Source: an uncultured archaeon
GTDB taxonomy: Archaea > Aenigmatarchaeota > Aenigmatarchaeia > QMZP01
Reading direction: 5' to 3'
NCBI GenBank assembly: GCA_964448625.1
Contig: CAYUWT010000001.1
Coordinates: 1-25,861, forward strand
Length of the DNA: 25,861 nt
In this document: positions 3,667 to 18,667 of the stretch, one piece after another
Numbering within the stretch: the first letter of the stretch is position 1
Layout of the letters: each line of letters begins with the position of its first letter
Made by a program: the position numbers and the translations under genes
Notes under the pieces: generated by a model
Seen by the model: the letters and a program-made list of their open reading frames with translations, nothing else
Told to the model about the DNA's origin: nothing
Databases searched by the model: none

Positions 3667-4566
3667 ATGCGTACAAATAAAGGCAGCGCTGTAACTGTAG
3701 GAACCTTCGACGGCGTTCATAGGGGCCACCGCAAGATACTTGAAACACTTGTGAGGGAGGCTGAAAAGCGCAACCTTGAGCCTATTGTTGTTACATTCCC
3801 CGAGCCCCCGCGGAACTTTTTTGGGGACAAAACAAAGCTGCTGTGCACACTTGAAAAGCGGAAAGAGCTCCTCAAAAAAGCGGGGATAGAAAGGGTGGAG
3901 GTTATTGATTTTAAGGATATACACATGCTCTCCCCTGAAGAATTTGCAAAAAGGGTGCTTGCAAAAAGGCTGAATTGCAAACTGTTTGTTGCAAGCTCCG
4001 TGTTTGTTTTCGGAAATGGGAGGGAAGGCAATATTGGCACCCTCAGGGCCCTTGGGAAGGAGCACGGTTTTGAGGTGATAGAGGTTGGGGTGGATATGAA
4101 AGAAGGAAGGAAGGTGGGCAGCAGCGCAATAAGGGAGGCGCTTGCAGAGGGAGACATTGCAAAGGCAAGGGAGCTGCTGGGCTACGACCCCACACTTACG
4201 GGGAAAGTCATAAAAGGGAAAGGAAAAGGGAAGGAGATGGGATTTCCCACGATAAATATAGAGCCTGACAAGGGGCTGGCAGACCTGAAAAGCGGCATAT
4301 ATGCTGCGGTGCTTGCATATGGAGGGAAAGAATACAAAGGGGCGGGATACATAGGCACGAAACCCACCTTCGGCAGCAACAGGATGGGCTTTGAGATATA
4401 CATAATGGAAAAACCTCCCCGAATAGCGGCAGGGGAAAGGGCTGAGATAAGGCTGGTTGAAAGGATACGGGATGACAGAAAGTTCGGAAGCGAGCAGGAG
4501 CTTTCAGAGGCGATAGCAGGCGATGTAAAAGAAATAGATACATGGTTCAAAAAAAAGTTTCCCTAA
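3667..4566 (+). CDS. ribF: bifunctional FMN adenylyltransferase / riboflavin kinase (bacterial RibF type)
   Basis: N-terminal TVGTFDGVHRGH (HxGH) and SSAIRE; C-terminal GKGKGKEMGFPTINI, GTKPTF, ERIRDDRKF. Confidence 0.9.
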   Translation: MRTNKGSAVTVGTFDGVHRGHRKILETLVREAEKRNLEPIVVTFPEPPRNFFGDKTKLLCTLEKRKELLKKAGIERVEVIDFKDIHMLSPEEFAKRVLAKRLNCKLFVASSVFVFGNGREGNIGTLRALGKEHGFEVIEVGVDMKEGRKVGSSAIREALAEGDIAKARELLGYDPTLTGKVIKGKGKGKEMGFPTINIEPDKGLADLKSGIYAAVLAYGGKEYKGAGYIGTKPTFGSNRMGFEIYIMEKPPRIAAGERAEIRLVERIRDDRKFGSEQELSEAIAGDVKEIDTWFKKKFP

Positions 4567-4640: not shown

Positions 4641-7631
4641 ATGTTTTCGGTGAGCAAAAGGATGCGAAATAACCATAACCCAACAGCTCTTGCCCTTTTT
4701 TCAATAGTCTCTATCCTCCTGCTGGCCCCCATTCACGTTTTTGCCCAGTCAATCTCCATAATTTCCCCTTCGGAAGGGCAGGCAGTGCTTTCAAACTCCT
4801 CGTTTTCAATCAGCTGGTCATCCTCAGGCATAGCCCATTTCCAGATAACTTACACAACAAACCTTTCAGCTTTGTGCAACGTTTCCGACAACGGGCAGTG
4901 CGAAAATAACGGCTGGTTATGCTTGCAGGACCACCCTTATGGAGATTCAGCGACAGCAGGCTGGACAGGGCAGGCACCGCAGCTCAACTCCACCGCAGTC
5001 AGGATACGGGTGGAGGGCCATGATGAAAGCCACGCAACTATAAACAACAGCTGCTCCCAGCTTTTCACAATAGCAAGCGTTCCCATGCCTCCCCGCAGCC
5101 TTGTAGCCGTTGCGCTCAATAAAAGCGCGATAAATATAAGCTGGGCAGCCCAGCAAAGCAACGAGCTTGTTACAAAGTATATGATTTACCGGGACTTGGC
5201 CAACATATACAGCACAACAGACAATAACACGCTTGCTTACATTGATAACGGCCTCACACCTTCAACACAATACAACTATACCCTTAAGGCCTTCAGCCCT
5301 GTTGGAGAATCCGCTTTCAGCAATACAGCCTCCGCAACAACCCTCCCGATGCCCCCTCATGTCAACCTTACCTCCCCCATCAACGGCCTGCTCACAAACT
5401 CCACCAGCCTTAATCTCACATGCTCAGCCACGGGGAGTTCTCTTAAAACCATAACCCTCTACGGCAACTGGAGCGGAGGCTGGCACACCAACGCAACACA
5501 AAATGTTTCAGGTAGCGCGGACTCCTCAACCTTTCCCGTGAGCCTTGCGGAAGGCCATTACTCATGGAACTGCCTTGCGGCGGAGGCAAGCGGCCCCAGC
5601 TCCTTTGCCGCTTCAAATTACACATTTATTATTGATACCACACCTCCCTCACTGAATATCACCTCCCCTACCAGCAACTCAATAGAGAGTGTCTCAAGAA
5701 ACATCACCTTCCGCTATATTGTGGGCGACTCGAACCCCATAGCCTCGTGCAACCTTTCGGTAGCGGGAATGCAGGGCAAGCCAGCTTCAGATGTGCCTCG
5801 CGCGACTGAACAGTCATTTTCAATGATTCTCCCAAACGGAAATTACAATTGGAGCATTTCATGCAAAGATAGCGCGGGAAACATCAACACCTCCGGGACC
5901 TTTATGCTCAATGTTTCCGTCCCCGACATGCCGCCCGCAGTGCAGCTCTTCTCCCCGGCTGATAGCCAGAACACAACCGGCTTTGTAACCTTCATCTGCG
6001 GGGCGGAAGACGATTTCGGGCTTGCGAACATAAGCCTTTACCACAACATCACAGGCAACTTTTCGTTCAACCAGACTGCCAGCGTTTCAGGGGCTGCAGC
6101 CAATGTAACCTTTGCCATCCAGAACATACAGCCGGGAACCTATATCTGGAGTTGCAGGGCCTCAGATAGCGGAGGCAGGACAGCTTTTGCTGCTGCGAAC
6201 AGGACCTTCAGGACTCTCGAATTTTCCATAACTGTTACGAGACCCGCCGGCGGAGACTCATGGAGAGGCGGGAGCGTGCAGGAAGCAAGGTGGGGGGCTT
6301 CAGGCAACTTCAGCCATTTCTCCGTCTGCTACGCCCTCGGAAGGGAATGCACAGGCAGCACACGGTGCGCTGATTCGGGCTGGTCATCCATAATGGACAG
6401 GGTTTCGGAAACCTCATTTGATTGGACTGTTCCCCCCACTGTAAACTCAGATTCAGCTGCTATTATGGTTGAAGGCTATGACTACTCAGGCAGCTTTGCA
6501 GCAGGAAAATGCTCCGGCACATTCTCAATATACACGGAAGTTTTACCCGCAACCCCTGCCGCCACCCAGGAGGGGCAGAGCACCAGCCAGCAGGAAACAT
6601 CAAAAAACGCAAGCGGGACATCCATCACTACCCTCCAGCAGCCTGCCCAGGAAGGCGCGGCTCAAGCAGCTGCTGCAGCCCCGGCCGCAGTGGAAGCGCA
6701 GCCTGCAGCAGCGCAGCTCAGGGTGGCAAAGTCAATAGAGTCTCTCACAGCAGGGCAGCCTTCCATTCTCGAGTTCAATGCCGGCCACATAAGCAACATA
6801 TCCATTCTCCCGCTGAATAACGCGACAGGAATAGGCCTTGAGGTCACAACCTCCCCTCCCCTCGCAAACATAACCCCTCTCTCCAGCTACGTTTTTGAAT
6901 ATATGGATATAGCAGTTTCAGGCAACATAAGCCTGCAGAAGGCTCTGATAACATTTTTCCTTGAAAGGAACGAGATGGAGGGCGCAAGCGCAAATATGGG
7001 AAGCATAGCGCTCTATCACATGGAAGGCGGCAAATGGCTCGCATTGCCCACCCGCGTTATTTACACGGAGGGCAACCGCACATTTTTCGAGGCTGAAACA
7101 CGCTCATTTTCCCTCTTTGCCATAGGGGTATACAGCTCCTTTTCCCTGACAGGGCTTCTCGCCTTCGACCGCAGCGCAGTTTCTTCAATAATAATAGTGG
7201 CAGCCATTGCAGCAGGCTTCCTTTATTACAAAGCCCGTGCTTCATATTTTGCAGGCGGAAGGAGGCGGAAAAAGATAATAATGCAGCCCAGGAAAGACGG
7301 GCAGGAGCAGGCGGCAGACAACTCCGGAAAACCCTATATGGAAACAGAACCGGAATCTCCACAGGCGCCGGCAATCAGGGCAAAAATAAATGGAACCGGG
7401 GAAATGGAAAGCCTGAAGGAAAGGCTTGCATTCCTGCGCAGCAGGGTTGTCGGGCCGGCCTCACCCAAACCCGAAAAGGCAAAAAGCCGCATGCCTGCAG
7501 GCAGCAGGGAGAAGCTTGCTTTCCTCCATGAGGCTGTGCTTGGCGAAAGACCTGCGGGGAAGACAAAGGGCGCTGCAAACAAAAAGGCAGGCTTCAGAAA
7601 GAAGACACCGAAACCAAAGAAGAGCATGTAG
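4641..7631 (+). CDS. large cell-surface glycoprotein (Ig-like/FN3 repeats, PGF-pre-PGF domain, C-terminal TM helix, basic tail)
   Basis: N-terminal hydrophobic signal; FN3-like segment (PPRSLVA...W...Y..Y...GLTPSTQYNYTLKA); three PPxV/L..SP...W.C...D/E..G repeats; EAETRSFSLFAIG (PGF-pre-PGF-like); TM SIIIVAAIAAGFLYY; many N-x-S/T sequons. Confidence 0.8.
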   Translation: MFSVSKRMRNNHNPTALALFSIVSILLLAPIHVFAQSISIISPSEGQAVLSNSSFSISWSSSGIAHFQITYTTNLSALCNVSDNGQCENNGWLCLQDHPYGDSATAGWTGQAPQLNSTAVRIRVEGHDESHATINNSCSQLFTIASVPMPPRSLVAVALNKSAINISWAAQQSNELVTKYMIYRDLANIYSTTDNNTLAYIDNGLTPSTQYNYTLKAFSPVGESAFSNTASATTLPMPPHVNLTSPINGLLTNSTSLNLTCSATGSSLKTITLYGNWSGGWHTNATQNVSGSADSSTFPVSLAEGHYSWNCLAAEASGPSSFAASNYTFIIDTTPPSLNITSPTSNSIESVSRNITFRYIVGDSNPIASCNLSVAGMQGKPASDVPRATEQSFSMILPNGNYNWSISCKDSAGNINTSGTFMLNVSVPDMPPAVQLFSPADSQNTTGFVTFICGAEDDFGLANISLYHNITGNFSFNQTASVSGAAANVTFAIQNIQPGTYIWSCRASDSGGRTAFAAANRTFRTLEFSITVTRPAGGDSWRGGSVQEARWGASGNFSHFSVCYALGRECTGSTRCADSGWSSIMDRVSETSFDWTVPPTVNSDSAAIMVEGYDYSGSFAAGKCSGTFSIYTEVLPATPAATQEGQSTSQQETSKNASGTSITTLQQPAQEGAAQAAAAAPAAVEAQPAAAQLRVAKSIESLTAGQPSILEFNAGHISNISILPLNNATGIGLEVTTSPPLANITPLSSYVFEYMDIAVSGNISLQKALITFFLERNEMEGASANMGSIALYHMEGGKWLALPTRVIYTEGNRTFFEAETRSFSLFAIGVYSSFSLTGLLAFDRSAVSSIIIVAAIAAGFLYYKARASYFAGGRRRKKIIMQPRKDGQEQAADNSGKPYMETEPESPQAPAIRAKINGTGEMESLKERLAFLRSRVVGPASPKPEKAKSRMPAGSREKLAFLHEAVLGERPAGKTKGAANKKAGFRKKTPKPKKSM

Positions 7632-7632
7632 G

Positions 7633-7656
7633 CTCCACGCGGCTTTGCCAGCGGAG
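7633..7656. repeat. imperfect hairpin CTCC-AC-GC-GGC-TTT-GCC-A-GC-GGAG immediately after the stop codon
   Basis: Read directly; could be a terminator-like or REP-like element. Confidence 0.5.
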
Positions 7657-7682
7657 TTAACCAAAAACCGGGGCCTTAACTA

Positions 7683-7702
7683 CCCGAACTTTAAAGTTCG
7701 GG
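7683..7702. repeat. 20-bp perfect palindrome, copy 3 (identical to copy 1)
   Basis: AACTACCCGAACTTTAAAGTTCGGG is shared exactly (25 bp) with 1386-1410. Confidence 0.95.
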
Positions 7703-7748
7703 CAATCTAGCAGGCCGAGTTATTGGCAAAGCCAACAGAGGCTATTGC

Positions 7749-7757
7749 TTTATAAAG
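7749..7757 (+). promoter_or_regulatory. TATA box (TTTATAAAG) for the CxxC-x17-CxxC gene
   Basis: Matches the archaeal TATA consensus; the gene also has an SD-like AAGGAG at 7815-7820. Confidence 0.5.
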
Positions 7758-7829
7758 AATTCCTACAAATATTGGGCAGGTATGGGAGAAAGCTCTTTGA
7801 TACCTTCAATAAGTAAGGAGTAAGTTAGC

Positions 7830-7982
7830 ATGCCATTCAAGAGTTTTGGCGGGCCGCGGCAAATGTTCAAGGCCAAATGTTCCGACTGCGGAAATGACTG
7901 CGAAGTGCCGTTCCAGCCTTCCGAAGGGCGTCCGGTTTACTGCCGCGACTGTTTCGCAAAACACCGACCAAAGAGATTCTAA
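7830..7982 (+). CDS. CxxC-x17-CxxC domain small Zn-binding protein (50 aa; not in the ORF track)
   Basis: Manual translation: MPFKSFGGPRQMFKAKCSDCGNDCEVPFQPSEGRPVYCRDCFAKHRPKRF. It has PRQMF, CxxC, VPF.P..GRPVYCxxC. Confidence 0.9.
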   Translation: MPFKSFGGPRQMFKAKCSDCGNDCEVPFQPSEGRPVYCRDCFAKHRPKRF

Positions 7983-8062
7983 TTGTATAAAAGTTAGAAC
8001 GAAACAAAATCGTTATTTTTTTCCGTTTATTTTGTATTTAAGCCTTCTGCACAAAGGCTAAT

Positions 8063-8506
8063 ATGTCTGGTGTGGAAAGGCGCAGGATATTCGTGGGCCG
8101 CGAGATGCTCCCCTTGGAGGAATTGAGGGAGCATGAAACGATTAACTACGCAAGGCTTGCGGAGCTTATGGATGAGATTGTTTCTACGGGCATGCTTGAC
8201 AAGCCCATTGTGGTCGACATAAATACGAAAACCATAATAGACGGCCACCACCGCTACAACGTCTTCAGGAACCTGGGTTTTGCGGAAATACCCGTTATCT
8301 ATGTGGATTACTTCCACCCTTCCATAGTGCTCCATTCCCTGAAGCAGGTCACGAAGGAGGACGTGATAAGAACGGCCAGCACAGGCAGGAAATTTCCTTC
8401 AAAAACAACGAGGCACATGCTTGCAAAGGGCCACAAGCTGGTCCACATCTCCGACCCGGTTAAGAACGTGAACTACCCCGTTTTAATAGGGCAGATGGTG
8501 GAGTGA
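8063..8506 (+). CDS. ParB/sulfiredoxin-fold protein, short SerK/SbnI (free serine kinase)-like
   Basis: LREHE, PIVV...IIDGHHRY, IPVIYVDY and C-terminal TKEDVI...GRKFPSKTTRH; TATA-like TTTAA at 8037. Confidence 0.7.
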   Translation: MSGVERRRIFVGREMLPLEELREHETINYARLAELMDEIVSTGMLDKPIVVDINTKTIIDGHHRYNVFRNLGFAEIPVIYVDYFHPSIVLHSLKQVTKEDVIRTASTGRKFPSKTTRHMLAKGHKLVHISDPVKNVNYPVLIGQMVE

Positions 8507-8593
8507 GAAAATTTTTGCAGTTATAATAACAGGCATAGTTTCTTCGATTGCCCCAATCTTCAAAGCTTTAAAACTGATTTCCCTTTCTAATAG

Positions 8594-9676
8594 ATGGAAG
8601 CGGCAAAAAGCATAGTTGAACTGATAGGGAACACGCCCCTTGTCAGGGTAAACAGGCTTGTTTCAAACGGGGCAGAGCTGTATGCGAAGCTCGAGTATCT
8701 GAACCCCGGAGGCAGCGTAAAAGACCGCATAGGTATAGCGATGATTAATGACGCTGCTGAGAAGGGTTCGATTAGAAAAGGGATGGCAATTATAGAGCCC
8801 ACCTCAGGCAATACAGGCATAGGACTACTCCTTGCAGCCATACAGTTTGGCTGCAACATGGCTTTTACAGTCCCGGACAAGCAGAGCAAAGAAAAGGTCA
8901 ACCTCCTCAAGGCCTATGGGGGACTGGCGGTTGTTACGAGGACGGATGTGGAGCCTGAAGACCCGCGGAGCTATTACAGGGTTGCGGAGATACTGAGGAA
9001 TGTGATAAACCATGAGAAAACGCCTCCCGGCCATGAAAGGCTTGGTTCTATTGTGGACAATATCCAGAAGCTTGTAAAGGAAGATAATGCGAAGGAGCTG
9101 AAAAGGCTGCTTGAAGCGCCGGGGAAATATAGCAACGCGTTCATACCCAACCAATACAGGAACATGGCAAACCCTCTTGCCCATTACAGGACTACAGGGC
9201 CTGAGATATGGAAGCAGACTGGAGGGAAACTGGACGCTTTCGTGTGCGGAATGGGCACAGGCGGAACCATAAGCGGCGCAGGCCGGTTTCTCAAGGAGAA
9301 AAACCCTGAAATAAAGGTGATAGGGGTTGATACGGAAGGCAGCATACTTCACCACCATTTCTACGGGACCGAAGGAAAGGCATACCCCTACAAGATTGAG
9401 GGCATAGGGGAGGATTTTATACCTGAAACAACGGATTTCAGCGTGGTGGATGAGATAATAACTGTGGGGGACAGGGAGGCTTATGAAACCGCAGGGGAGC
9501 TTGCGAGGAAGGAGGGCATTCTTGCAGGGAGCTCCGGGGGCGCTGCAATGCTTGGGGCTATGAAGGTGTGCAAAAGGATGGGGAAGGGGATTGTTGTTGT
9601 GCTGCTCCCGGACGGGGGGAGAAATTACCTGAGCAAGCTTTACAATGACGAGTGGATGAGGGTGAACTTCCCATGA
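8594..9676 (+). CDS. PLP-dependent cystathionine beta-synthase / cysteine synthase family enzyme
   Basis: LNPGGSVKDRIG (PLP lysine), EPTSGNTG, GMGTGGT, IEGIGEDF. EDPRSYY is CBS-like. Confidence 0.9.
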   Translation: MEAAKSIVELIGNTPLVRVNRLVSNGAELYAKLEYLNPGGSVKDRIGIAMINDAAEKGSIRKGMAIIEPTSGNTGIGLLLAAIQFGCNMAFTVPDKQSKEKVNLLKAYGGLAVVTRTDVEPEDPRSYYRVAEILRNVINHEKTPPGHERLGSIVDNIQKLVKEDNAKELKRLLEAPGKYSNAFIPNQYRNMANPLAHYRTTGPEIWKQTGGKLDAFVCGMGTGGTISGAGRFLKEKNPEIKVIGVDTEGSILHHHFYGTEGKAYPYKIEGIGEDFIPETTDFSVVDEIITVGDREAYETAGELARKEGILAGSSGGAAMLGAMKVCKRMGKGIVVVLLPDGGRNYLSKLYNDEWMRVNFP

Positions 9677-10818
9677 GCAGCTTTGAAACCAGATGTGTTC
9701 ATGGAGGGCAGAAGCCTGACCCGACAACAGGTGCTATTGTGCCTCCTGTTTACATGACTGCAACCTATGTTCTTGACAGGATAGGAGGCTGGAAGGGTTA
9801 CGATTATTCGCGCACAATAAACCCAACGAGGGTAGCTATGGAAAATCTCCTTGCCGAGCTGGAGGGGTCAAAGCACGGCATAGCCTTTGCCTCCGGGCTT
9901 GCGGCAATCACAAGCATACTCTCCCTCCTTTCAAAAGGAGACCATGTGGTTTCAACGGATGACATTTATGGCGGCGTGTACAGGCTTTTCGAGCAGGTCT
10001 TGAAAAGGTTCGGGCTGGAGTTCACTTATGTTGACAGCTCAGAGCCTGGGAATATAGAAAGTGCAATAAAGGATAACACGAAAATGCTGTGGATTGAAAC
10101 CCCGACCAACCCCCTTCTTAAAATAACAGATGTGGAGGCTGCAGCAAAAATAGCAAAAAGGGAAAAGTTAATATCTGTTGTGGACAGCACCTTTGCAACC
10201 CCATACAACCTCCGCCCGCTCGAATACGGGATTGACATAGTGATGCACAGCACAACGAAATACATAAGCGGCCACAACAACCTCATAGGGGGCTTTGCAG
10301 CAGCAAGCAGTGATGAGCTTGCAGAAAAGCTCCGCTTTCTCCAGAACGCGATCGGAGCTGTTCCCGGTCCCATGGACTGCTGGCTTGTAATCATGGGCGC
10401 AAAAACGCTGCACTTGCGGATGGAAAAGCACGAGAAGAATGCGCGTGAGATAGCAGCATTTCTCGAATCCCACCCGAAAATAGAAAGGATTATCTACCCG
10501 GGCCTTGAATCCCACCCGCAGCACGGAATAGCGAAGAGGCAGATGAAGGGCTTTGGGGGTATGATAAGCTTTGAGCTCAAAGATGATTCTCATGCAGGCG
10601 AGCGCTTTGCGAATTCCCTGAAGCTAATTTCCCTCGCCGAAAGCCTCGGCGCTGTTGAAAGCATGCTCACCCACCCTGCAACAATGACCCACAAGAGCAT
10701 TCCAGGCGGGGAGAGGCTGGCAAGGGGGATAACCGATGGGCTGGTAAGGCTCTCGGTCGGGGTAGAGGATGTGGAGGACATAAGGGCTGATCTGGAGCAA
10801 GCCCTCGAAAAGGCATGA
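9673..10818 (+). CDS. cystathionine gamma-lyase/synthase (trans-sulfuration PLP enzyme)
   Basis: YSRTINPT, FASGLAA, ETPTNP, VVDSTFA, HSTTKYISGH, SLGAVES, RLSVGVED; ATGA overlap with the upstream stop. Confidence 0.92.
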   Translation: MSSFETRCVHGGQKPDPTTGAIVPPVYMTATYVLDRIGGWKGYDYSRTINPTRVAMENLLAELEGSKHGIAFASGLAAITSILSLLSKGDHVVSTDDIYGGVYRLFEQVLKRFGLEFTYVDSSEPGNIESAIKDNTKMLWIETPTNPLLKITDVEAAAKIAKREKLISVVDSTFATPYNLRPLEYGIDIVMHSTTKYISGHNNLIGGFAAASSDELAEKLRFLQNAIGAVPGPMDCWLVIMGAKTLHLRMEKHEKNAREIAAFLESHPKIERIIYPGLESHPQHGIAKRQMKGFGGMISFELKDDSHAGERFANSLKLISLAESLGAVESMLTHPATMTHKSIPGGERLARGITDGLVRLSVGVEDVEDIRADLEQALEKA

Positions 10819-10851
10819 TTAATGTATTTAAGCTGTTTTACGATTTTAGTT

Positions 10852-11238
10852 ATGGGCAGATCTGTGGACACAATGCCCAGGCAGTATATCAAGAAGCTCG
10901 CCGCCTATGCCCGCCAGCTGGAAGGGACTGATTCATATCCCAGTTGTCCGGAAATAAAAGGCCTGGAAGAACTCTACTGCAAATTAAAAGGACGCCCCAT
11001 CAAGCTTCTCCGCGAGATGCTGGAGTGCAACATAGTCGCCCCTGATGGTGAGTGGTCTTGCAGGGGGCCGCCAGACGTAAAGAAAAGGCTGTATGATTTC
11101 GGTCTTCTTAAAAGGGAAAAGATGCCTGGCTATGGCAGAGGTGTCCATGTCCGTTACAGATACAGGATAGCAGAGAAACAAGCCGGTCTGATAAGAGAGT
11201 TAGTGTATATTGCCTATGGAAAACAGCCATCTGGATAA
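10852..11238 (+). CDS. hypothetical protein (128 aa)
   Basis: Fills the gap between flanking genes; TTTAA at 10827 lies 25 nt before ATG 10852; no family recognised. Confidence 0.5.
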   Translation: MGRSVDTMPRQYIKKLAAYARQLEGTDSYPSCPEIKGLEELYCKLKGRPIKLLREMLECNIVAPDGEWSCRGPPDVKKRLYDFGLLKREKMPGYGRGVHVRYRYRIAEKQAGLIRELVYIAYGKQPSG

Positions 11239-11249
11239 AAGCTATTAAG

Positions 11250-11627
11250 CTATTTTCTGTCCTGCCACAGCCCTATTATATTGCCTTCAGTGTCCCTGAA
11301 GCGCGCATAAAAGCCCATATCGCCCACCGGCACTGTCGGCATAACAATCTTTCCCCCGGTCTTCTCCACCTTTTTTATGTGCTCCTCAATGGAAGGCACT
11401 TTTATCACAATTACAGGATGCTTTCCAGTCTCATCTCTCTTCACCATGCCGCCGTTTATCGCTCCCGGGGTTTTGGGCATCCCCTTCTCATCAGTTTCCA
11501 CTGTATTGACAAGGCAATAGTTCATCCGGGGAATCTCGTTGATAGACCAGCCGAAGGTCTCCCTGTAAAACTTCTGCGCCCTCTCCATATCATCCGCAGG
11601 TATCTCGAAGTGGACCACTTTGTTCAT
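11250..11627 (-). CDS. VOC / glyoxalase-bleomycin resistance family protein
   Basis: MNKVVHFEIPADD...RAQKFY..TFGW; INGGM; G.YARFRDTEGNIIGLWQ. Confidence 0.9.
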   Translation of the reverse strand: MNKVVHFEIPADDMERAQKFYRETFGWSINEIPRMNYCLVNTVETDEKGMPKTPGAINGGMVKRDETGKHPVIVIKVPSIEEHIKKVEKTGGKIVMPTVPVGDMGFYARFRDTEGNIIGLWQDRK

Positions 11628-11674
11628 AAGATGGATATCCTTTTGAAACAGAGATTTATATAGCTGCAATAAAA

Positions 11675-11962
11675 TCAAGGCAGGCAGACCGTTGGCTCAT
11701 TGTTGTCATGCGCATAATCTCCACTGAAGTCGAGATAATGCAGCCTTCCCAGGTTTTGGCTGTTCCCGAGGGTGCAGACATCATGGCAGTCAGTGCCGGG
11801 GATGGTGTGTGCAGACGGCTGGCCATGTGGCGGAGCTGGTATTGCTGCAGTGCCGCTGCAATGGGCCCTTATAACTCCGTTAGGGAAATGCGGATATGCG
11901 GCCGGCAGCGCAAGAACTACAAACATCCCGGCTATTCCCAAAACAATCAGCAGATGCTTCAT
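11675..11962 (-). CDS. small putative secreted Cys/His-containing protein (95 aa)
   Basis: Signal-peptide-like N-terminus MKHLLIVLGIAGMFVVLALPAA; TTATTAAG on the minus strand 28 nt upstream. Confidence 0.45.
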   Translation of the reverse strand: MKHLLIVLGIAGMFVVLALPAAYPHFPNGVIRAHCSGTAAIPAPPHGQPSAHTIPGTDCHDVCTLGNSQNLGRLHYLDFSGDYAHDNNEPTVCLP

Positions 11963-12106
11963 ATTTATGAAGTGACAGCAATCTTAATAAGCTTGTGTGT
12001 TCTCCACGTGGTGGAGCGGGCTTGCCATGCTGCTATTCTTTTTTATTTTGCCCCCGGTTGCCTCCCCTGAACATGCAGCCTTAAATCATACGCATCAATA
12101 ATCATT

Positions 12107-13036
12107 ATGAAAGAGACAGTCCTTGAAGTTGAGAACCTTACAAAAAGTTACCTCTCCTTCCGCGCAGTAAACGGCATATCCTTCCGCGTTCCTAGAGGAA
12201 AGGTCATAGGGCTGCTCGGCCCCAACGGGGCTGGCAAAACCACAACAATACACATGCTTTTGGGCGTAACGCTCCCTGATAAAGGGGCTATACGGTATTT
12301 TGGCCAGGATTTTTTCAGGAACAAGGAAAGCAGCCTGCAGAGGATAAACTTCGCCTCCTCTTTCAACACGCTGCAGGGCCGCATCTCAGTGAAAGAGAAT
12401 CTTCTGGTTTTCGCAAAGCTCTATGGTGTCAGGGAGGCGGAAAGCAGGATAATGGAACTTGCTGAGATTTTTGAGATCAGAGAGATACTCCCGCAGCGCT
12501 TCTGGGACCTTTCCTCCGGGCAGAAGACCCGCGTTAATCTCGTGAAGTCCCTTATCAATGAGCCGGAGCTGCTCCTCATGGACGAGCCAACCGCCTCCCT
12601 TGACCCGGATATAGCGGACAAGACCCTGTCCTTCATCGAGCAGCTGAAGAAATCAAGCGAGATAACAATACTCTATACGAGCCACAACATGGATGAGGTT
12701 GCAAGAATCTGCGATGAGGTTGTTTTCCTCGACAGGGGCAGGATTGTGGCGCATGACACTCCGCTCGGCCTGACCAAGCGCATAAAAAGCGCCACCCTGA
12801 GGCTGACATTCGACGGGGAAAAAAGGAAGGTGGAAAGATACCTCAAAACCCGGAAACAGCCCTTTTCTTTTGTGAAAGAACACGTAGTTTCCATAAGCAC
12901 GAAGGAAAAGCTCATACCGAAGCTGATATTCGGGGTAAGCCAGGCGGGAATATGGATAACGGATATTGAAGTGAAGAAACCCACTCTGGAGGACGTGTTC
13001 CTGCAGATAGCAAGGAGGAAGCATGCGGCTCCATAG
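12107..13036 (+). CDS. ABC transporter ATP-binding protein (ABC-2/drug-export type)
   Basis: GPNGAGKTT, LSSGQ, LLLMDEPT, H-loop TSH, C-terminal PTLEDVF. Confidence 0.95.
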   Translation: MKETVLEVENLTKSYLSFRAVNGISFRVPRGKVIGLLGPNGAGKTTTIHMLLGVTLPDKGAIRYFGQDFFRNKESSLQRINFASSFNTLQGRISVKENLLVFAKLYGVREAESRIMELAEIFEIREILPQRFWDLSSGQKTRVNLVKSLINEPELLLMDEPTASLDPDIADKTLSFIEQLKKSSEITILYTSHNMDEVARICDEVVFLDRGRIVAHDTPLGLTKRIKSATLRLTFDGEKRKVERYLKTRKQPFSFVKEHVVSISTKEKLIPKLIFGVSQAGIWITDIEVKKPTLEDVFLQIARRKHAAP

Positions 13037-13811
13037 GATAAAGGCAATACTTCTGCAGGAATATTTCATAACCAGGAGGTCGCTTGAGGTGATAATGGAC
13101 CTCTTCTTCTTCTCCATAATTTCAGTGATAGTGTTCGGCTTCATCTCCGCGTTCCTGGCCGGCTCCGCAAGCGCAGCTACAGCCCAGTCCCTCCTGCTGG
13201 GGATGATTCTCTGGGAAATAATACGCATAACCCAGTATTCGATGTCTGTTGGGGCTTTATGGAACATATGGTCGCGCAACCTCAGCAACATGTTCATCGC
13301 GCCCCTCTCGCTTGCTGAATACATGCTCGCGCACATGCTCTCAGGGACAGCCAAGGCGCTTCTGGCATTCGCAGGCATGTGGCTCATAGCCTCTTACATA
13401 TTCGGCTTCAACATACTTTCTCTCGGCCCGGTTAATCTTACGCTCTTTTTCGCGAACCTGACTTTATTCTCATGGTCCACAGGGATAATAATTCTCGGTG
13501 TCATATTCCGCTACGGGACAAGGATACAGGCCCTTGCATGGGGGCTTATATTCCTCTTCCAGCCTCTCACTGCAGCATTCTTCCCGGTGAGCGTTCTCCC
13601 CCCTGCGCTGCAGACAATAGCCTACCTTTTCCCGCCCACCTATGTTTTCGAGGCCGCGAGGGCAGCCCTGATAAACCCTTCGGTTGACTGGGGCATGGCC
13701 GGCCTTGCACTGGCAGAAAACATTGTTTATTTTGCCCTTTCCCTCCAGCTTTTCAGCTTCATGTTCCGGAAGTCAAAACAAACCGGCCAGTTCGCGAGGA
13801 ACGAGGGGTAA
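13023..13811 (+). CDS. ABC-2 type transporter permease
   Basis: About six hydrophobic segments, FFPVSVLP..LQ.IA..FP.TY..EA.R motif; overlaps the ATPase gene. Confidence 0.9.
   Translation: MRLHRIKAILLQEYFITRRSLEVIMDLFFFSIISVIVFGFISAFLAGSASAATAQSLLLGMILWEIIRITQYSMSVGALWNIWSRNLSNMFIAPLSLAEYMLAHMLSGTAKALLAFAGMWLIASYIFGFNILSLGPVNLTLFFANLTLFSWSTGIIILGVIFRYGTRIQALAWGLIFLFQPLTAAFFPVSVLPPALQTIAYLFPPTYVFEAARAALINPSVDWGMAGLALAENIVYFALSLQLFSFMFRKSKQTGQFARNEG
13782..13810 (+). repeat. 29-bp direct repeat, left copy (permease 3' end)
   Basis: ACCGGCCAGTTCGCGAGGAACGAGGGGTA. Confidence 0.9.
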
Positions 13812-13863
13812 TCAGCCTGCGTATGCATATATCCTTTATATTTACACAATTCAACACAGAGTT

Positions 13864-14586
13864 ATGAGTTGGGTGGGGGAGGATAATAGAGATTCTGTTA
13901 AAACATACACGCTTTCTCCAGAGGAGTTTCTGGGACCGCTTAATGATATAGAACAAAAATATGCTCCTAAGAGGTTTTATGTCGCGGGCAAACTTTCAAT
14001 TATGCGCTCTATCCCTAGAATAGCTATAATTGGTTCCAGAAAGGCAAGCCAAGAAGGTCTTAAGAGGAGTGAGGAGTTGACCGAAGCCCTTGTGAATCAT
14101 GGTGCGACCATTGTCAGCGGGCTTGCAGAAGGCATAGATACATCTGCTCACCAAACAGCTATCGATGAGGGAGGGCGGACAATAGCAGTTCTCGGCACAT
14201 CTCTTGATAAAAATTATCCGGCAAAAAACCGCAACCTTCAAAAGTTAATTATGAAAGAGCATCTTGCAGTGACACAATTCCCTTCAGGCTATCCAATCAA
14301 CCGCAGCAATTTCCCCATGAGGAACAGGACAATGGCGCTGATTTCCCACGCTTCGGTTATAGTGGAGGCTGATGATACAAGCGGCGCCCTTTCCCAGGGA
14401 TGGGAAACCATCCGCCTCGGCAGGCCGCTTTTCATAATGAAAGCGGTGATGAGCAATCGCTCTCTTACATGGCCTGCACAAATGCGCGCTTACGGAGCGT
14501 TTGTACTTTCAACTCCCGAGGAGGTGCTTGAGGTTCTGCCGCCCCCGGGGTCGAACCTTAACATGGATGCTGCTCTCAAAGCTTGA
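13864..14586 (+). CDS. dprA: DprA/Smf-like (SLOG fold) protein, core domain only
   Basis: IAIIGSRKAS, IVSGLAEGIDTSAH, TIAVLGT, FPMRNRTMA, VIVEA...SGAL; TTTATA at 13835, 29 nt upstream. Confidence 0.88.
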   Translation: MSWVGEDNRDSVKTYTLSPEEFLGPLNDIEQKYAPKRFYVAGKLSIMRSIPRIAIIGSRKASQEGLKRSEELTEALVNHGATIVSGLAEGIDTSAHQTAIDEGGRTIAVLGTSLDKNYPAKNRNLQKLIMKEHLAVTQFPSGYPINRSNFPMRNRTMALISHASVIVEADDTSGALSQGWETIRLGRPLFIMKAVMSNRSLTWPAQMRAYGAFVLSTPEEVLEVLPPPGSNLNMDAALKA

Positions 14587-15229
14587 ATACGGGGCTATTT
14601 TGTCTTATACACCGAAGCCTCAAACAGAGGATGAAAAGGCGTCACGGACTTTGATGTATAAGCTGAAAACCGATTCTGTTTCAAAAATTGGCACTGCCGA
14701 ACCATTACCATTCTCCCTATATATTGCGAAGCACATAGCAAGGAAAATCTCCGCTCTCCCATTTTCCGGTTTCTTTGGACCAAAAACAACTCTTGTGCCT
14801 GTCCCGAAAAGCTCACTGCTCAAGCAGGGGATACTTTGGGTGCCGCGCCGACTTGCAGAGGCCTTTGTTAAGGAAGGTCTGGGCGGAAAGGTAGTGGAAT
14901 ATCTTAAGCGCAAAGAAGCGCTTCCCAAAGCAGCCTTCCAGACTGATTCCAAGAATCGCCCTAGGCCTGAGGATCATTACAGAACACTTCAGGTTGAAAA
15001 AATATTTGACATTCCAAATTCCATTGTTTTGATAGATGATGTAGTGACAAGCGGTTCCGCCCTTCTTGGGTCTGCAAGCCGCCTCGCTGAAATCTTTCCG
15101 GGGGTCATTATTTCAGCTTTTGCAGTTATGCGGACAATAAGCAACCCAAATGAGTTCAAGAGCATAGAAGACCCATGCAGGGGAAAAGTCATACTGCGCC
15201 CAAATGGGACTGCCGCCCGCGAGCCATGA
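14567..15229 (+). CDS. ComF-like type I phosphoribosyltransferase
   Basis: LVPVP motif and PRPP-binding loop IVLIDDVVTSGSAL; overlaps the DprA-like gene by 20 bp. Confidence 0.85.
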   Translation: MLLSKLEYGAILSYTPKPQTEDEKASRTLMYKLKTDSVSKIGTAEPLPFSLYIAKHIARKISALPFSGFFGPKTTLVPVPKSSLLKQGILWVPRRLAEAFVKEGLGGKVVEYLKRKEALPKAAFQTDSKNRPRPEDHYRTLQVEKIFDIPNSIVLIDDVVTSGSALLGSASRLAEIFPGVIISAFAVMRTISNPNEFKSIEDPCRGKVILRPNGTAAREP

Positions 15230-15260
15230 GTAGACATGGAAAAAATGTTCCGCCTTCGAG

Positions 15261-15289
15261 ACCGGCCAGTTCGCGAGGAATGAGGGGTA
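15261..15289 (+). repeat. 29-bp direct repeat, right copy
   Basis: ACCGGCCAGTTCGCGAGGAATGAGGGGTA; 28/29 identical to 13782-13810. Confidence 0.9.
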
Positions 15290-15340
15290 GACTGTTTCCT
15301 TTATCTTACCGTAAAATGAAAATTCAATGGGGGTGGTTAC

Positions 15341-15571
15341 GTGAAAAAAGGCAGGAAGGTAAATGAAAGTTTTTGGGAAGATGGGTTTTTTGCCAAGGCT
15401 GTCAGCGAGGAGGAGATGAAGGAAAAGGCAAAGACCATCCACATGAAACATGACGAGGATATGAGATTCAGCTGCCGGAAATGCACAAGGAAAATATCCG
15501 CCCATAACAAAGACTGGCATGACGGCATGTGCGATGAGTGCTTCGATAAGGAGTATTTCCCCGAAAAGTGA
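15341..15571 (+). CDS. small hypothetical protein with two CxxC pairs (putative Zn finger)
   Basis: CRKC...CDEC; GTG start is uncertain. Confidence 0.6.
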   Translation: MKKGRKVNESFWEDGFFAKAVSEEEMKEKAKTIHMKHDEDMRFSCRKCTRKISAHNKDWHDGMCDECFDKEYFPEK

Positions 15572-15645
15572 GGCCGGGCATTTATGGCCCGCATATGCTG
15601 AAAAGATATCATTTTTTAGAATTTACGCATGTCGCTTCCGAGACG

Positions 15646-15710
15646 CTCCATGCTTTACTATTTCCCGCATTCAAACTTAAACCTGTATGCGGGAAGCTGT
15701 TAGCATGGAG
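15646..15710. repeat. 65-nt two-stem hairpin (CTCCATGCT/AGCATGGAG outer, TTCCCGCAT/ATGCGGGAA inner)
   Basis: Two perfect 9-bp stems, read directly. Confidence 0.8.
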
Positions 15711-15728
15711 AGTGGATGAAAATCATTA

Positions 15729-15748
15729 CCCGAACCTTAAGGTTCGGG
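15729..15748. repeat. 20-bp perfect palindrome, copy 4 (CCCGAACCTTAAGGTTCGGG)
   Basis: Read directly; flanks CATTA / AAGTT. Confidence 0.95.
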
Positions 15749-15773
15749 AAGTTTCTTACGTTGAGCAGTAGAC

Positions 15774-15836
15774 ACCCGCTTCAAAAAATCCCGCATACAA
15801 AGCGATCTCGTATGCGGGTAGCTTCAAGCGGCGGGT
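15774..15836. repeat. nested hairpin (ACCCGC/GCGGGT outer, CCCGCATAC/GTATGCGGG inner) with internal 7-bp direct repeat GCTTCAA
   Basis: Stems at 15774-79/15831-36 and 15790-98/15810-18; GCTTCAA at 15778-84 and 15821-27. Confidence 0.75.
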
Positions 15837-15878
15837 AGTTCAGTGCAAATTCTTAATACCTCCCCCCCAAAATATGCT

Positions 15879-17159
15879 ATGCTCATAAAGAACTGCCGCT
15901 TCGTTGTCACTCCACAAACCGTTCTTGAAAATTCAGATATTCTGATAGCGGGGGATAGAATTGCACAAGTGGGGAAAAACCTGAAAAAGGAGAACGGGGA
16001 TGGCATGGAGATAGAAGGAAGCAAAAGGCTTGCAATGCCTGGTCTGATCAACACGCACACCCATGCAGCGATGGCTTTGTTCCGCGGCGCAGGGGATGAT
16101 ATGGAGCTGATGAAATGGCTTTCCTCGCGCATATGGCCCATGGAGGCAAAACTGGCAGCGGAGGATGTTTATGCGGGAGGCATGCTGGCGGCGCTTGAGA
16201 TGGTGAAGAGCGGGACGACAACGTTCTGTGACATGTATTACTGCATGGATGAGATGGCAAGGGTGTGCCGCGAGATTGGGATAAGGGGTTACCTTTCCTA
16301 TGCGATAATAAACAGGGAGATATCAAAAGAGCCCGGAGACCCTGTTGGCAACTGCAAAAAATTCATAAAAAGATATCAGAAAGACCCTCTTGTTTTCCCT
16401 GTAGCAGGGCCGCATGCAATTTATACAAATTCGGAAGATTCCCTGAGGAGAGTGGCGGAATTATGCAGGGAAACAAAAACCCTTGCGCACATCCACCTGA
16501 GCGAAACCAAAGGCGAGGTCGAAAACTGTATAAAGCACACAGGAAAAAGGCCCGCGCAATATCTGGACTCACTTGGTTTTTTCGATGTGCCAGCACTAGC
16601 TGCGCACTGCATATGGCTTGATCCGGCTGAGATAAGCCTCCTCTCAAAGAAGAATGTTTCAATAGCCCACAACCCCGTATCCAACATGAAGCTTGCCAGC
16701 GGAATAATGCCCCTCAAAAAAATCCAGCAGGCGAGAGTGAACATTTCCCTCGGGACAGACGGCGCTGCAAGCAACAACTCGCTTGACATGTTCGAGACCG
16801 TGAAAATAACAGCCTTGCTGCACAAGGTCACTGACATGGATGCTGAGGCCACGAAGGCTGCCGGCATACTGAAGATGGCAACAGCTAACGGCGGGAAAGC
16901 CCTGAACAGCCCCCTGCTCGGGAAGATTGAGAAAGGCTGCGCTGCTGATGTTATATTGCTTGATATAAACAAGGAGCATTGGACTCCATTCTACAGCCCT
17001 GTTTCAAACCTTGTTTACAGCTGTAAATCAACCGATGTTTCCCACTCTATAATCAACGGAAGGCTTGTGATGGAAAACAGGGAGCTTTTGACCGCTGATG
17101 GGGACAAAATAATTTCAAACGCAATGAAGGCCGCGGAAAAGTTCAGGAGGGCTTTCTGA
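15879..17159 (+). CDS. amidohydrolase, MTA/SAH deaminase (MtaD/DadD)-like
   Basis: INTHTH, GPHAIYT, HIHLSET, AAHC, GTDGAASNN; ATG 15879 lies 27 nt after CTTAATA. Confidence 0.85.
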   Translation: MLIKNCRFVVTPQTVLENSDILIAGDRIAQVGKNLKKENGDGMEIEGSKRLAMPGLINTHTHAAMALFRGAGDDMELMKWLSSRIWPMEAKLAAEDVYAGGMLAALEMVKSGTTTFCDMYYCMDEMARVCREIGIRGYLSYAIINREISKEPGDPVGNCKKFIKRYQKDPLVFPVAGPHAIYTNSEDSLRRVAELCRETKTLAHIHLSETKGEVENCIKHTGKRPAQYLDSLGFFDVPALAAHCIWLDPAEISLLSKKNVSIAHNPVSNMKLASGIMPLKKIQQARVNISLGTDGAASNNSLDMFETVKITALLHKVTDMDAEATKAAGILKMATANGGKALNSPLLGKIEKGCAADVILLDINKEHWTPFYSPVSNLVYSCKSTDVSHSIINGRLVMENRELLTADGDKIISNAMKAAEKFRRAF

Positions 17160-17170
17160 AAAACAGGCTT

Positions 17171-18106
17171 ATGAAAGCGATTAATATCCGCAGCTGCGGA
17201 GGGCCTGAAGTTCTGGAATACACCGATGTTCCAAAAACAAAAACTTCAAAAGGCGAAACCCTTGTAAAAACAGAGTTCTCAGGAATAAACTATATAGACA
17301 TATACCACCGCACCGGCCTTTATCCCCTTGCGCTTCCTTTCATCCCCGGGCTTGAGGCTGCCGGCACATTGGAAAACGGGGATAGGGTCGCATATGCGGC
17401 GCAGCTTGGCTCATATGCGGAGTATTGCTCTGTGCCTTCATGGAAGCTTGTCAAAATACCTGATTCTATAAGCACGGAGCATGCTGCAGCCCTTATGCTG
17501 CAGGGCATGACTGCTCATTACCTTTCACACAGCACCCATAATATTAGGAAAGAGGAAACGGTTTTGATACACGCAGCCGCAGGAGGGGTAGGCTTGCTGC
17601 TTGTCCAGATTGCAAAAATGAAAGGCGCTGAAGTGATAGGGACTGTTTCAGCAAGGGAGAAGGCGGCGCTTGCAAAAAATGCAGGGGCTGATTATGCAAT
17701 CATTTATACGGAAGATGATTTTGAGGAGGAAACGAAAAAAATAACAGAAGAAAAAGGCGTTGATGTTGTATATGATTCTGTGGGCAAATCAACCTTTCTC
17801 AAAAGCCTCCGCTGCCTTAAAACAAGAGGCCATATGGTCTCCTTCGGCCAGTCAGGCGGACCTGTCCAGCCTCTGGATATCCGCCTCCTTTCGGAAAGCT
17901 CCCTTACACTCACAAGGCCCAGGCTTTCGGATTACTGCGCAACAAGGGGGGAGCTTTTATCCAGAGCGGAAAGCCTCTTTGAATGGGTATCCTCAGGGGA
18001 AATAAAGCTGCACATATACAAAAAGTTCAGGCTGGAAAAAGCAGGCGAAGCGCACAGGGAGCTTGAGTCGCGCAAAACAGCGGGCAAGCTGCTGCTTATC
18101 CCGTGA
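17171..18106 (+). CDS. qor: NADPH:quinone oxidoreductase (zeta-crystallin/Qor, MDR family)
   Basis: GINYID, PFIPGLEAAG, IHAAAGGVG, VVYDSVG, ELESRKTAGKLLL. Confidence 0.9.
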   Translation: MKAINIRSCGGPEVLEYTDVPKTKTSKGETLVKTEFSGINYIDIYHRTGLYPLALPFIPGLEAAGTLENGDRVAYAAQLGSYAEYCSVPSWKLVKIPDSISTEHAAALMLQGMTAHYLSHSTHNIRKEETVLIHAAAGGVGLLLVQIAKMKGAEVIGTVSAREKAALAKNAGADYAIIYTEDDFEEETKKITEEKGVDVVYDSVGKSTFLKSLRCLKTRGHMVSFGQSGGPVQPLDIRLLSESSLTLTRPRLSDYCATRGELLSRAESLFEWVSSGEIKLHIYKKFRLEKAGEAHRELESRKTAGKLLLIP

Positions 18107-18296
18107 TTTCCCTTCTCAGCGGCAGAAACCTCAATGAATTCTCATATGGCTGTGGATAATCGCTGAGAGGGGCGCCGCAGTGCATGCAATGCTTATCTGC
18201 TGCCTGGGAATACTCATCGCATACCCAGCAGTAGGCCATTTCTGCCGGTTCCGTGTCCCGCCTCCTTTTTCTCGGCTTTTTCCGCGGCTTCTTCAT
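18096..18296 (-). CDS. small zinc-ribbon protein with a very basic N-terminus
   Basis: KKPRKKPRKRRR then CWVC...CMHCG; 4-bp overlap with the VanZ-family gene. Confidence 0.6.
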   Translation of the reverse strand: MKKPRKKPRKRRRDTEPAEMAYCWVCDEYSQAADKHCMHCGAPLSDYPQPYENSLRFLPLRREITG

Positions 18297-18667
18297 AGCT
18301 GATTTTTGGGAGAAAGGCTTTTATTCCTTCCCATTACGGCCGCAAACCCCGCAACCCCTATCCCGGCAGCGTCCGCCATGAAATCAAATATGCTCGCCTC
18401 CCTCAGCGGGACAAAAGACTGGTGCACCTCATCAAGCAGGGCATAGGAGAGCGCAAAAAGGAGGGAGAATAGAATGCTTCTCCTGTTGCTTGGGGCCGTG
18501 GCTTTGAAAACGAGGAAGCCGAAAACGAAGAACTCCGCGAAATGGACGGTCTTGTCGCTGTATGCGGGGCCTGCAGGCTGCGCGCTGCCCGGGACCGAGG
18601 AGCCGTAAAAGATGAGCGCGGCATAAACGGCAAGAACAGCCATCCAGAAAGTCTTCACGTTGTTCAT
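18293..18667 (-). CDS. VanZ family membrane protein
   Basis: DKTVHFAEF, YALLDEVHQSFVPLREASIFDFMAD. Confidence 0.88.
   Translation of the reverse strand: MNNVKTFWMAVLAVYAALIFYGSSVPGSAQPAGPAYSDKTVHFAEFFVFGFLVFKATAPSNRRSILFSLLFALSYALLDEVHQSFVPLREASIFDFMADAAGIGVAGFAAVMGRNKSLSPKNQL

Follow-up and report, generated by a model that had tools for sequence, protein, structure and literature searches.

The 25.9-kb stretch of DNA analyzed here (contig CAYUWT010000001.1, positions 1 to 25,861; hereafter the window) carries, immediately after a gene for an ABC-2 type transporter permease, a two-gene cassette that is bracketed by direct repeats of the end of that gene. The cassette encodes ShosA, a DprA-like protein, and ShosT, a phosphoribosyltransferase (PRTase)-like protein, and from sequence comparison it is a putative self-contained toxin-antitoxin (TA) and abortive-infection defense module of the ShosTA (Shosta) type. 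The best overall explanation, which we hold with slightly better than even confidence, is that this module entered by a Campbell-type insertion at the permease end, that the insertion is old, and that it has since been inherited vertically.

Duplication of the permease gene end

A search of the whole window recovered exactly two copies of ACCGGCCAGTTCGCGAGGAA[C/T]GAGGGGTA, at 13782-13810 and 15261-15289, which agree at 28 of 29 positions and are spaced 1479 nt apart. The left copy (attL-like core, 13782..13811, forward strand) comprises the last nine codons and the TAA stop codon of the permease gene (13023..13811, forward strand; Pfam PF01061, 1.3e-09), and the right copy (attR-like core, 15261..15290, forward strand) is a non-coding sequence with TAG at its end. 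In the permease frame the translation of each copy is TGQFARNEG*, and the two differ only in AAC versus AAT at repeat position 21 and in TAA versus TAG at position 30. An earlier reading of this DNA by a model that saw only the letters (the original prediction) had described a 29-bp repeat with one mismatch at this spacing and had called the differences synonymous; both descriptions hold. The repeat begins on a codon boundary and terminates at the stop codon, and the right copy lies outside any open reading frame (ORF), as an in-frame stop at 15231-15233 is not followed by a start codon. The C-terminus TGQFARNEG* is conserved among permease relatives of Patescibacteria, DPANN, and other groups.

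No repeat pair with three or fewer mismatches arose in 100 dinucleotide-preserving shuffles of the window, a test that excludes a chance origin, and the 29-bp pair is among the two strongest direct-repeat families found when the window was searched for repeats. The search that recovered the two copies returned neither terminal inverted repeats nor any other inverted-repeat structure at the ends of the cassette. Homology extending upstream of the repeats was not significant.

A predicted ShosTA-type module as cargo

Between the two copies lie a TTTATATT box, ShosA, and ShosT, with no further credible gene, and the interior holds only 83 nt of non-coding DNA, which contain no gene fragments. The TTTATATT box, an archaeal TATA-like element (13835..13842, forward strand), ends 21 nt before the ATG of ShosA; this spacing suits an archaeal TATA box, and the element would be a promoter giving a leaderless or near-leaderless transcript. 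Similar TATA boxes precede ShosA in the archaeal loci L041-L043. Downstream of this single box the two genes are co-oriented and adjacent, with a 20-nt overlap. ShosA (13864..14586, forward strand; 240 aa), the putative antitoxin with a DprA-like (Rossmann/SLOG) fold, matches the PADLOC model PDLC03961 (7.9e-72), the Pfam family PF02481 (DNA_processg_A; 9.6e-51), and structures of DprA (PDB 3uqz; 5.8e-30) and ShosA (PDB 9vzo; 6.8e-13). ShosT (14567..15229, forward strand; 220 aa), the putative PRTase-like toxin, matches the PADLOC model PDLC03962 (2.9e-18) and, weakly, the Pfam family PF00156 (Pribosyltran). In an alignment of seven ShosT homologs, residues D157, D158, T161, and G163 of its phosphoribosyl pyrophosphate (PRPP) loop motif IVLIDDVVTSGSA are invariant, and a profile built from this alignment matches PDB entries for adenine and orotate PRTases at their PRPP loops. 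It is because of these PADLOC, Pfam, and PDB matches, together with the PRPP motif, that the cargo is assigned to the ShosTA systems.

In Escherichia coli, ShosTA is a type IV TA pair that acts in abortive-infection defense; the PRTase toxin ShosT disturbs purine metabolism and the DprA-like ShosA binds single-stranded DNA and RecA (PMC11961720; PMC12961424). By analogy, toxicity of the window ShosT, its neutralization by ShosA (indirectly, by way of the recombination machinery), and a role of the pair in defense are proposed. The two systems are alike in being two-gene modules of a DprA-like and a PRTase-fold protein, and both PADLOC models match the window genes. They differ in that the window ShosA has 240 aa, versus the 331 residues of the solved chain 9vzo, which it matches only at the value given above; in that ShosA precedes ShosT in the window, with a 20-nt overlap between them; and in that the window host is apparently archaeal, with RadA instead of the RecA that is bound by E. 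coli ShosA. Further, two results count against the assignment of the cargo: PDB searches with ShosT detected no similarity in sequence to the solved E. coli protein or to any other solved ShosT structure, and a single-sequence AlphaFold model of the protein reached a pLDDT of only 33.

Genuine DprA/ComF competence genes were considered and rejected, since ShosA scores 155 bits against the true-DprA equivalog TIGR00732, under its cut-off of 191, and no ComF match was found. The original prediction had listed only a TATA-like box and two overlapping genes between the repeats, an inventory that proved complete, and had named the genes as a DprA and PRTase cassette. The proteins are indeed DprA-like and PRTase-like, but the pair is not a generic one, and its ShosTA identity had been missed.

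The composition of the cassette sets it apart from its surroundings. The GC content is 0.448 at 13800-14199 versus 0.52 in the permease gene, in line with the AT-rich 5' end remarked on earlier, and the GC content at third codon positions (GC3) of the two cassette genes (0.46 and 0.45) is the lowest in the window, versus 0.595 +/- 0.057 for the 23 other genes. The codon-usage distances of ShosA and ShosT are also the largest among window genes longer than 500 nt. Low GC3 and deviating codon usage together indicate that the cassette is of foreign origin.

Conservation of the insertion in hot-spring and aquifer lineages

Copies of the locus that are identical or 99.4-100% identical to the window were found in the ENA contigs L001 and L002, in the JGI contigs L003, L033, and L034, and in two hot-spring runs. 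A diverged relative, whose flanking genes differ from those of the window by 7-13%, was found among the Logan contigs of a run from an aquifer sample (X3); runs X1-X3 were studied as assembled contigs of a k=31 graph. An assembly artifact, which the original prediction had named as a possible refutation, is rejected, as the structure recurs in five independent contigs, the two hot-spring runs, and the diverged aquifer run.

In X3, an upstream contig of 6567 nt ends at the position equivalent to 13811, a repeat contig of 31 nt equals 13782-13812, and a cassette contig of 1505 nt runs from the left to the right repeat with 106 substitutions (7%) and 3 gaps relative to the window. This cassette contig finishes with 30 nt equal to 13782-13811, and the two X3 copies match over at least 31 nt (31/31). 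A downstream contig of 714 nt begins with the repeat and continues through ~155 nt of unrelated sequence into the amidohydrolase gene found at 15875 in the window. Since X3 carries the same cassette between the same repeats, the insertion is, by this comparison, old and took place before the hot-spring and aquifer lineages separated. ShosA and ShosT alleles of X3, rebuilt from the listed differences, gave a dS of 0.20 and a dN/dS of 0.21 for ShosA and a dS of 0.18 and a dN/dS of 0.23 for ShosT relative to the window, and both ORFs are intact. Both cassette genes are thus kept by purifying selection.

The DNA downstream of the right copy, 585 nt in the window versus ~155 nt in X3, is non-homologous between the lineages, with the break lying exactly at the end of the repeat; the boundary after the right repeat must therefore have been rearranged at least once. 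Such a rearranged boundary is among the points in favor of an explanation that we regard as unlikely, namely that the cassette is the remnant of a larger integrated element (a provirus, a plasmid, or something resembling an integrative and conjugative element, ICE) from which the integrase and other genes were deleted. This would be a cis-mobilizable element (CIME) in the strict sense, and att-like repeats without an integrase do match the definition of CIMEs (PMC5704250). However, the interior retains just the 83 nt of non-coding DNA, free of gene fragments, the same minimal content is found in hot-spring and aquifer lineages, and related two-gene units of similar size are bounded by repeats at two of the loci surveyed below (spacing of 1399 nt at L044 and of 1663 nt at L042).

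Variation among strains shows that sequence is exchanged at the locus. The left repeat copy reads AAT in L002 and L033, which is the base of the right copy, and X3 has AAC in both copies. L034 departs from the window by just 18 changes, which all fall in a 140-nt tract inside ShosA (13956-14096), and 17 of these 18 are X3 alleles, which indicates recombination between diverged lineages; a cluster of substitutions in the permease gene of L002 and L033 (13544-13577) apparently derives from a third allele type. Given these mosaic tracts, homologous recombination is active at the locus, and it could keep the repeat copies alike.

Some side observations concern the contigs themselves. L003 follows the window as far as 16965, after which its last 248 nt are completely different, and L034 ends at the same position; the break at 16966 lies inside the amidohydrolase gene and could mark either the edge of an assembly or a breakpoint between strains. 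The X3 contigs cover only ~6-18 kb of the window (compared over 6000-18600) with uneven depth, from 11 to 324 and then falling to 0. Chimeric joints among them (opposite strands; going back 2913) suggest an amplified or otherwise unusual library.

A motif downstream of ShosT and the preservation of the right repeat

The 8-mer ATGTTCCG occurs at 15245..15252 (forward strand), 15 nt past the ShosT stop codon and 8 nt before the right repeat, and again at 13761-13768, 13 nt before the left repeat, just where the original prediction had placed both copies. As a pair these are statistically marginal (P ~0.017 by longest common substring and P 0.1 by local alignment). The motif ATGTTC, by comparison, is found 6-23 nt past the ShosT stop codon in five independent lineages, where ~0.4 would be expected: the window (15244-15249), L035 (7420), L125 (4329), L126 (4265), and L052 (5327). 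These lineages span archaea, bacterial plasmids, and one viral contig. In addition, the region 3' of ShosT in the window can be aligned with its counterparts in L035 (P 0.002) and in the Allochromatium plasmid L125 (P 0.014). Because ATGTTC recurs after the ShosT stop codon at loci that have no permease gene, the right ATGTTCCG probably belongs to the cassette as a 3' element and is less likely to be the remnant of a longer displaced permease tail, as had first been supposed from its position upstream of both repeats.

The right repeat copy was also described earlier as part of a decaying tail. This does not agree with its match to the left copy at 28 of 29 positions in the window and at 31 of 31 in the aquifer lineage, despite a dS of ~0.19 in the cassette. 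Its preservation is significant if that dS is taken as the neutral rate, but not with the 6-11% divergence observed in the adjacent non-coding DNA. It could be argued that so well preserved a copy (one difference here, none in X3), with a conserved ATGTTC motif just upstream, has a function, and that the repeat is unrelated to the arrival of the cassette, being instead a terminator, an operator, or a small ORF, or else the product of chance or of a local duplication. We consider this very improbable. Chance is excluded by the shuffles, the right copy lies in no ORF, and the mini-ORF that begins at ATGTTCCG is not conserved in X3; moreover, the preservation is non-significant given the low divergence of nearby non-coding DNA, and a duplicate that ends at a stop codon and brackets a foreign segment is a classic signature of integration.

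Proposed insertion by a single crossover at the permease 3' end

In a Campbell-type insertion, the ABC-2 permease gene would have recombined at its 3' end with an inferred small DNA circle carrying a 30-nt copy of the last nine codons and the stop codon. One reciprocal crossover, for which a place between repeat positions 21 and 30 fits the C/T and A/G differences, would have duplicated the core, so that the left copy keeps the permease intact and the right copy persists as a non-coding, att-like scar. The empty allele would have consisted of the permease sequence ...AAACAA, one core, and ACTGTTTCC..., and the junction of the circle would have read ...CCTTCGAG, core, TCAGCCTGCG.... After insertion, the cassette would have been inherited vertically under purifying selection and exchanged between lineages by ordinary homologous recombination only. 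The single-crossover reading is drawn from the restoration, by the left copy, of a C-terminus that is conserved in the family, from a repeat that starts at a codon boundary and runs to the stop codon, and from the foreign and self-contained nature of the DNA between the copies. The same geometry, conserved C-terminus, and foreign composition support in outline the original prediction that the cassette entered by recombination at the permease 3' end and restored the gene.

Of the routes considered, we favor a crossover made by a site-specific recombinase of the tyrosine type, encoded elsewhere or since lost, and place the chance of this just short of even; the cassette would then be a CIME-like, integrase-less island. 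The length of the repeat, its exact end at the stop codon, and its likeness to 3'-end-restoring elements are the reasons for proposing such an enzyme acting in trans.

A number of results weigh against an insertion of this kind. No integrase, resolvase, or transposase is encoded in the cassette or elsewhere in the 25.9-kb window, which widens the earlier statement that the cassette itself holds no recombinase, and the cassette contains no transfer genes. The dyad inside the repeat is weak (GTTC-N5-GAAC) and is imposed by the amino acid sequence itself. Among the sampled strains and X3, all of which have the same cargo, neither an empty allele nor alternative cargo was found. The 28-mer of the repeat has no match in IMG/VR, and an element combining attP with an integrase was found neither there nor in the JGI contigs. 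No empty or circle junction is present in the assembled contigs, in which the k=31 graph merges filled, empty, and circular forms at the repeat, and contigs of X1 and X2 show no joints that would indicate excision. Lastly, repeat sequences and lengths (19 to ~225 nt) differ between ShosA-ShosT loci, which speaks against one dedicated recombinase.

The original prediction had recommended comparing relatives for an empty site or other cargo and searching for more copies of the repeat. Among permease relatives of up to 74% amino acid identity, 29 of 29 loci lack the cassette and a duplicated tail (defined by no more than 6 mismatches in 30), and the same loci show no ShosA-ShosT pair and no downstream synteny; of the 29, 22 are GTDB loci in which the gene end is included, and seven are Logan/JGI contexts around the closest relatives (68-74% amino acid identity). 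An exact 28-mer scan of JGI metagenome contigs gave two matches, both of them the filled allele of the same species. Thus neither comparison turned up an empty site, alternative cargo, or a further repeat copy, and the suggestion that the site is a cassette-swapping hotspot is unsupported, with the same cargo in every sampled strain and in X3; the insertion is apparently fixed. A close donor of the cassette was not found either, the nearest ShosA being only 63-64% identical and IMG/VR holding no close relative.

It should be noted that the depths of the X3 contigs (324.2 upstream, 169.4 for the cassette, and 153.7 downstream, where 169.4 + 153.7 ~ 324.2) are suggestive of a mixture of filled and empty sites but are equally explained by coverage that falls steadily rightward (125, 100, 4, 0). 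The depth of the repeat node (390) fits neither simple model, and the depth sum was used for no conclusion.

Repeat-bounded modules at other ShosA-ShosT loci

The closest relatives of the window ShosA (54-64% amino acid identity) are archaeal, with the same order of ShosA then ShosT and with TATA boxes of their own; contigs of the nearest ones carry archaeal ribosomal proteins, histones, and eIF2-gamma. Several relatives lie in defense islands or on plasmids adjoining restriction-modification (RM) genes and other TA pairs. An adjacent downstream ShosT-like gene is present at 39 of the 93 loci with a ShosA relative. For 35 testable pairs, including that of the window, the 500 nt upstream were compared with the 700 nt downstream, and 70 comparisons with one flank reversed served as controls, the highest of which scored 12. 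Flanking direct repeats beat every control at 8 of the 35 loci, of which ~5 or 6 are independent. The scores were 92 for L035, an archaeal metagenome-assembled genome (MAG), 53 for the related archaeal MAG L038, 26 for the window, 20 for the Paracoccus plasmid L044, 19 for the archaeal MAG L042, 15 for L050 and L051 (the same element), and 13 for the plasmid L127, which has the motif of L044. No flanking repeat was found at L039, L041, or L043. Repeat-bounded ShosA-ShosT modules are thus recurrent, and their repeats share neither sequence nor length.

At L042, a perfect 19-nt direct repeat with an internal dyad, CTGAACCGGGTTCTGTTAA (3976-3994 and 5639-5657), brackets ShosA-ShosT; the stop codon of rps17e (ribosomal protein S17e) falls within the left copy, and the repeat recurs 106 nt past ShosT. 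An IS66/rve-type transposase gene lies ~350 nt downstream at this locus. In L035 (5750-8937) and L038 (4474-9272), HicAB, ShosA-ShosT, and MNT-HEPN pairs are arrayed one after another, each followed by a ~225-nt copy of the C-terminal end of the upstream MmeI-like RM gene, encoding ...IVYGLYGITEEERKIIE, and the copies after ShosA-ShosT in the two MAGs share a 45-nt insertion. On plasmids of Paracoccus and Pseudosulfitobacter (Rhodobacterales), all successive modules are separated by a 19-nt dyad site, GCACAAATGTGGGTTTGTG, which is not confined to the surroundings of ShosA-ShosT (L044 at 1205, 2171, and 3570; L127 at 1911, 2359, 2889, and 4288), the modules being repA, parA, ShosA-ShosT, and RM or GIY-YIG genes. 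The layout of these sites resembles pdif-type module boundaries. On the Chryseobacterium plasmid L126, a small gene annotated as 'recombinase family protein' (2407-2967) lies 19 nt upstream of ShosA-ShosT in the same orientation.

The variety of repeats at these other loci fits better with an insertion driven by homology. In that case a circle or fragment of the cassette carrying a copy of the permease tail would have joined the chromosomal tail through short-homology recombination of the RadA type, with no dedicated recombinase; the circle could have come from a relative, excised there between its own repeats. We judge this to be possible, though clearly less probable than not. In its favor, homologous recombination is active at the locus, as the mosaic tracts of L034 and of L002 and L033 indicate, the C/T polymorphism of the left copy equals the right-copy base in some strains, the ~225-nt RM-tail copies of L035 and L038 exceed the normal length of an att core, the repeat sequence is different at every ShosA-ShosT locus, and neither a recombinase in the window nor a second att copy was found. 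Set against this, a homology of 29-30 nt is near the lower limit for recombination of the RecA/RadA type, the first copy of the tail on the cassette is left unexplained, and element-borne att copies under selection to restore a gene typically show an identity that, as here, breaks off right at the stop codon.

A still broader proposal is that ShosA-ShosT and the TA pairs next to it in archaeal defense islands are integrase-less mobile cassettes that insert at the 3' ends of host genes by short-homology single crossovers, duplicating the tails as they do so, with ShosA, as a DprA-like recombination mediator, perhaps promoting the reaction. This is a long shot. It would explain why unrelated repeats of 19 nt (rps17e, L042), 29 nt (the window), and ~225 nt (L035 and L038) accompany these modules.

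Relation to known systems

The closest known kinds are, for the cargo, the ShosTA system and, for the arrangement as a whole, the att-flanked, integrase-less islands resembling CIMEs, and the window cassette is noteworthy among these for its archaeal host and minimal size. CIMEs are islands flanked by att sites that have lost integrase and transfer genes (PMC5704250). Like them, the window cassette has direct att-like repeats of which one forms the 3' end of the target gene, lacks recombinase and transfer genes, and bears presumably adaptive cargo. However, CIMEs were defined in Firmicutes as decayed ICEs or integrative and mobilizable elements (IMEs) of several kb with integrase-bearing kin that use the same site (PMC5704250), whereas the island here is archaeal, 1.45 kb long, and composed of two genes, and searches of IMG/VR and the JGI contigs revealed no integrase-bearing relative and no second att copy.

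Site-specific integrative elements that restore the 3' end of their target, including tycheposons and remnants of these (bioRxiv 10.1101/2020.12.28.424599), similarly carry a gene end that rebuilds the target and leave a displaced copy downstream, and their repeated insertion can build arrays of partial copies such as those of L035 and L038. Unlike the window cassette, they bring a recombinase gene of the tyrosine or serine type, usually along with replication genes, and they mostly target tRNA genes.

Modules that depend on the host Xer recombinase (IMEX elements and the pdif modules of Acinetobacter; PMC6449649; PMC13141974) are small and integrase-less, are bounded by sites of ~28 nt, and commonly carry TA cargo. 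The pdif sites form 11-6-11 dyads in alternating (inverted) orientation, whereas the window repeat is direct, occupies a coding tail, and has a weak dyad; the 19-nt dyad sites of the Rhodobacterales plasmids look more pdif-like than the window repeat does. An Xer/pdif module was accordingly rejected, the repeats being direct and their best dyad, by inspection, amounting to 6/11 with a 5-nt spacer.

Integron cassettes are comparable in size (~1.5 kb), in holding one or two genes and no recombinase, and in their common TA cargo. The window cassette differs from them in having no imperfect palindrome of the attC type and no intI or attI nearby, in its own predicted promoter, and in a repeat that is the end of the neighboring gene; this identity was rejected for want of inverted-repeat structure at the ends and of an integrase in the window. 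A transposon with a target-site duplication was likewise rejected, given the lack of terminal inverted repeats and of a transposase and a repeat length (29 nt) far above that of known duplications.

Taken alone, the window insertion, old and apparently fixed, is an ordinary genomic island; it is the comparative pattern that deserves follow-up. The presence of flanking repeats at 8 of 35 loci, along with the arrays of TA pairs and RM tails in one archaeal lineage, hints at a general route of spread for small defense modules that bring no recombinase of their own. The cassette is a very compact putative defense module with its own predicted promoter, and the att-like repeats at its borders restore the gene at which it would have inserted. 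Additionally, a module of the ShosTA type in a DPANN-like archaeon with RadA and not RecA raises the testable question of how such an antitoxin acts in archaea.

Host and genomic context

The permease gene comes second in an ABC transporter gene pair, after that of its partner ATPase (12107-13036; Pfam PF00005, 3.8e-29). The best named relatives of the phosphoglucomutase encoded in the window belong to Aenigmarchaeota (52-57% identity), followed by Nanoarchaeota and Woesearchaeota, and by such best hits the host is most likely a DPANN (Aenigmarchaeota-like) archaeon of a hot spring.

The 585 nt after the right repeat (15291-15875) contain a 76-aa Cys-rich ORF without a family match (15341-15571) and a cluster of hairpins. 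Within this stretch, the intergenic region 15600-15850 has a very stable predicted fold (-88 kcal/mol, z = -6.1) and is without an Rfam match; an Rfam scan of 13000-16500 returned nothing except a spurious lncRNA match. Short contigs of 31-45 nt from X3 match 15623-15657 at a depth of ~25000, versus ~324 for neighboring genes. A palindromic family, TACCCGAAC-NTTAAN-GTTCGGGAA, has four intergenic copies in the window, at 1386-1414, 1453-1481, 7678-7706, and 15724-15752.

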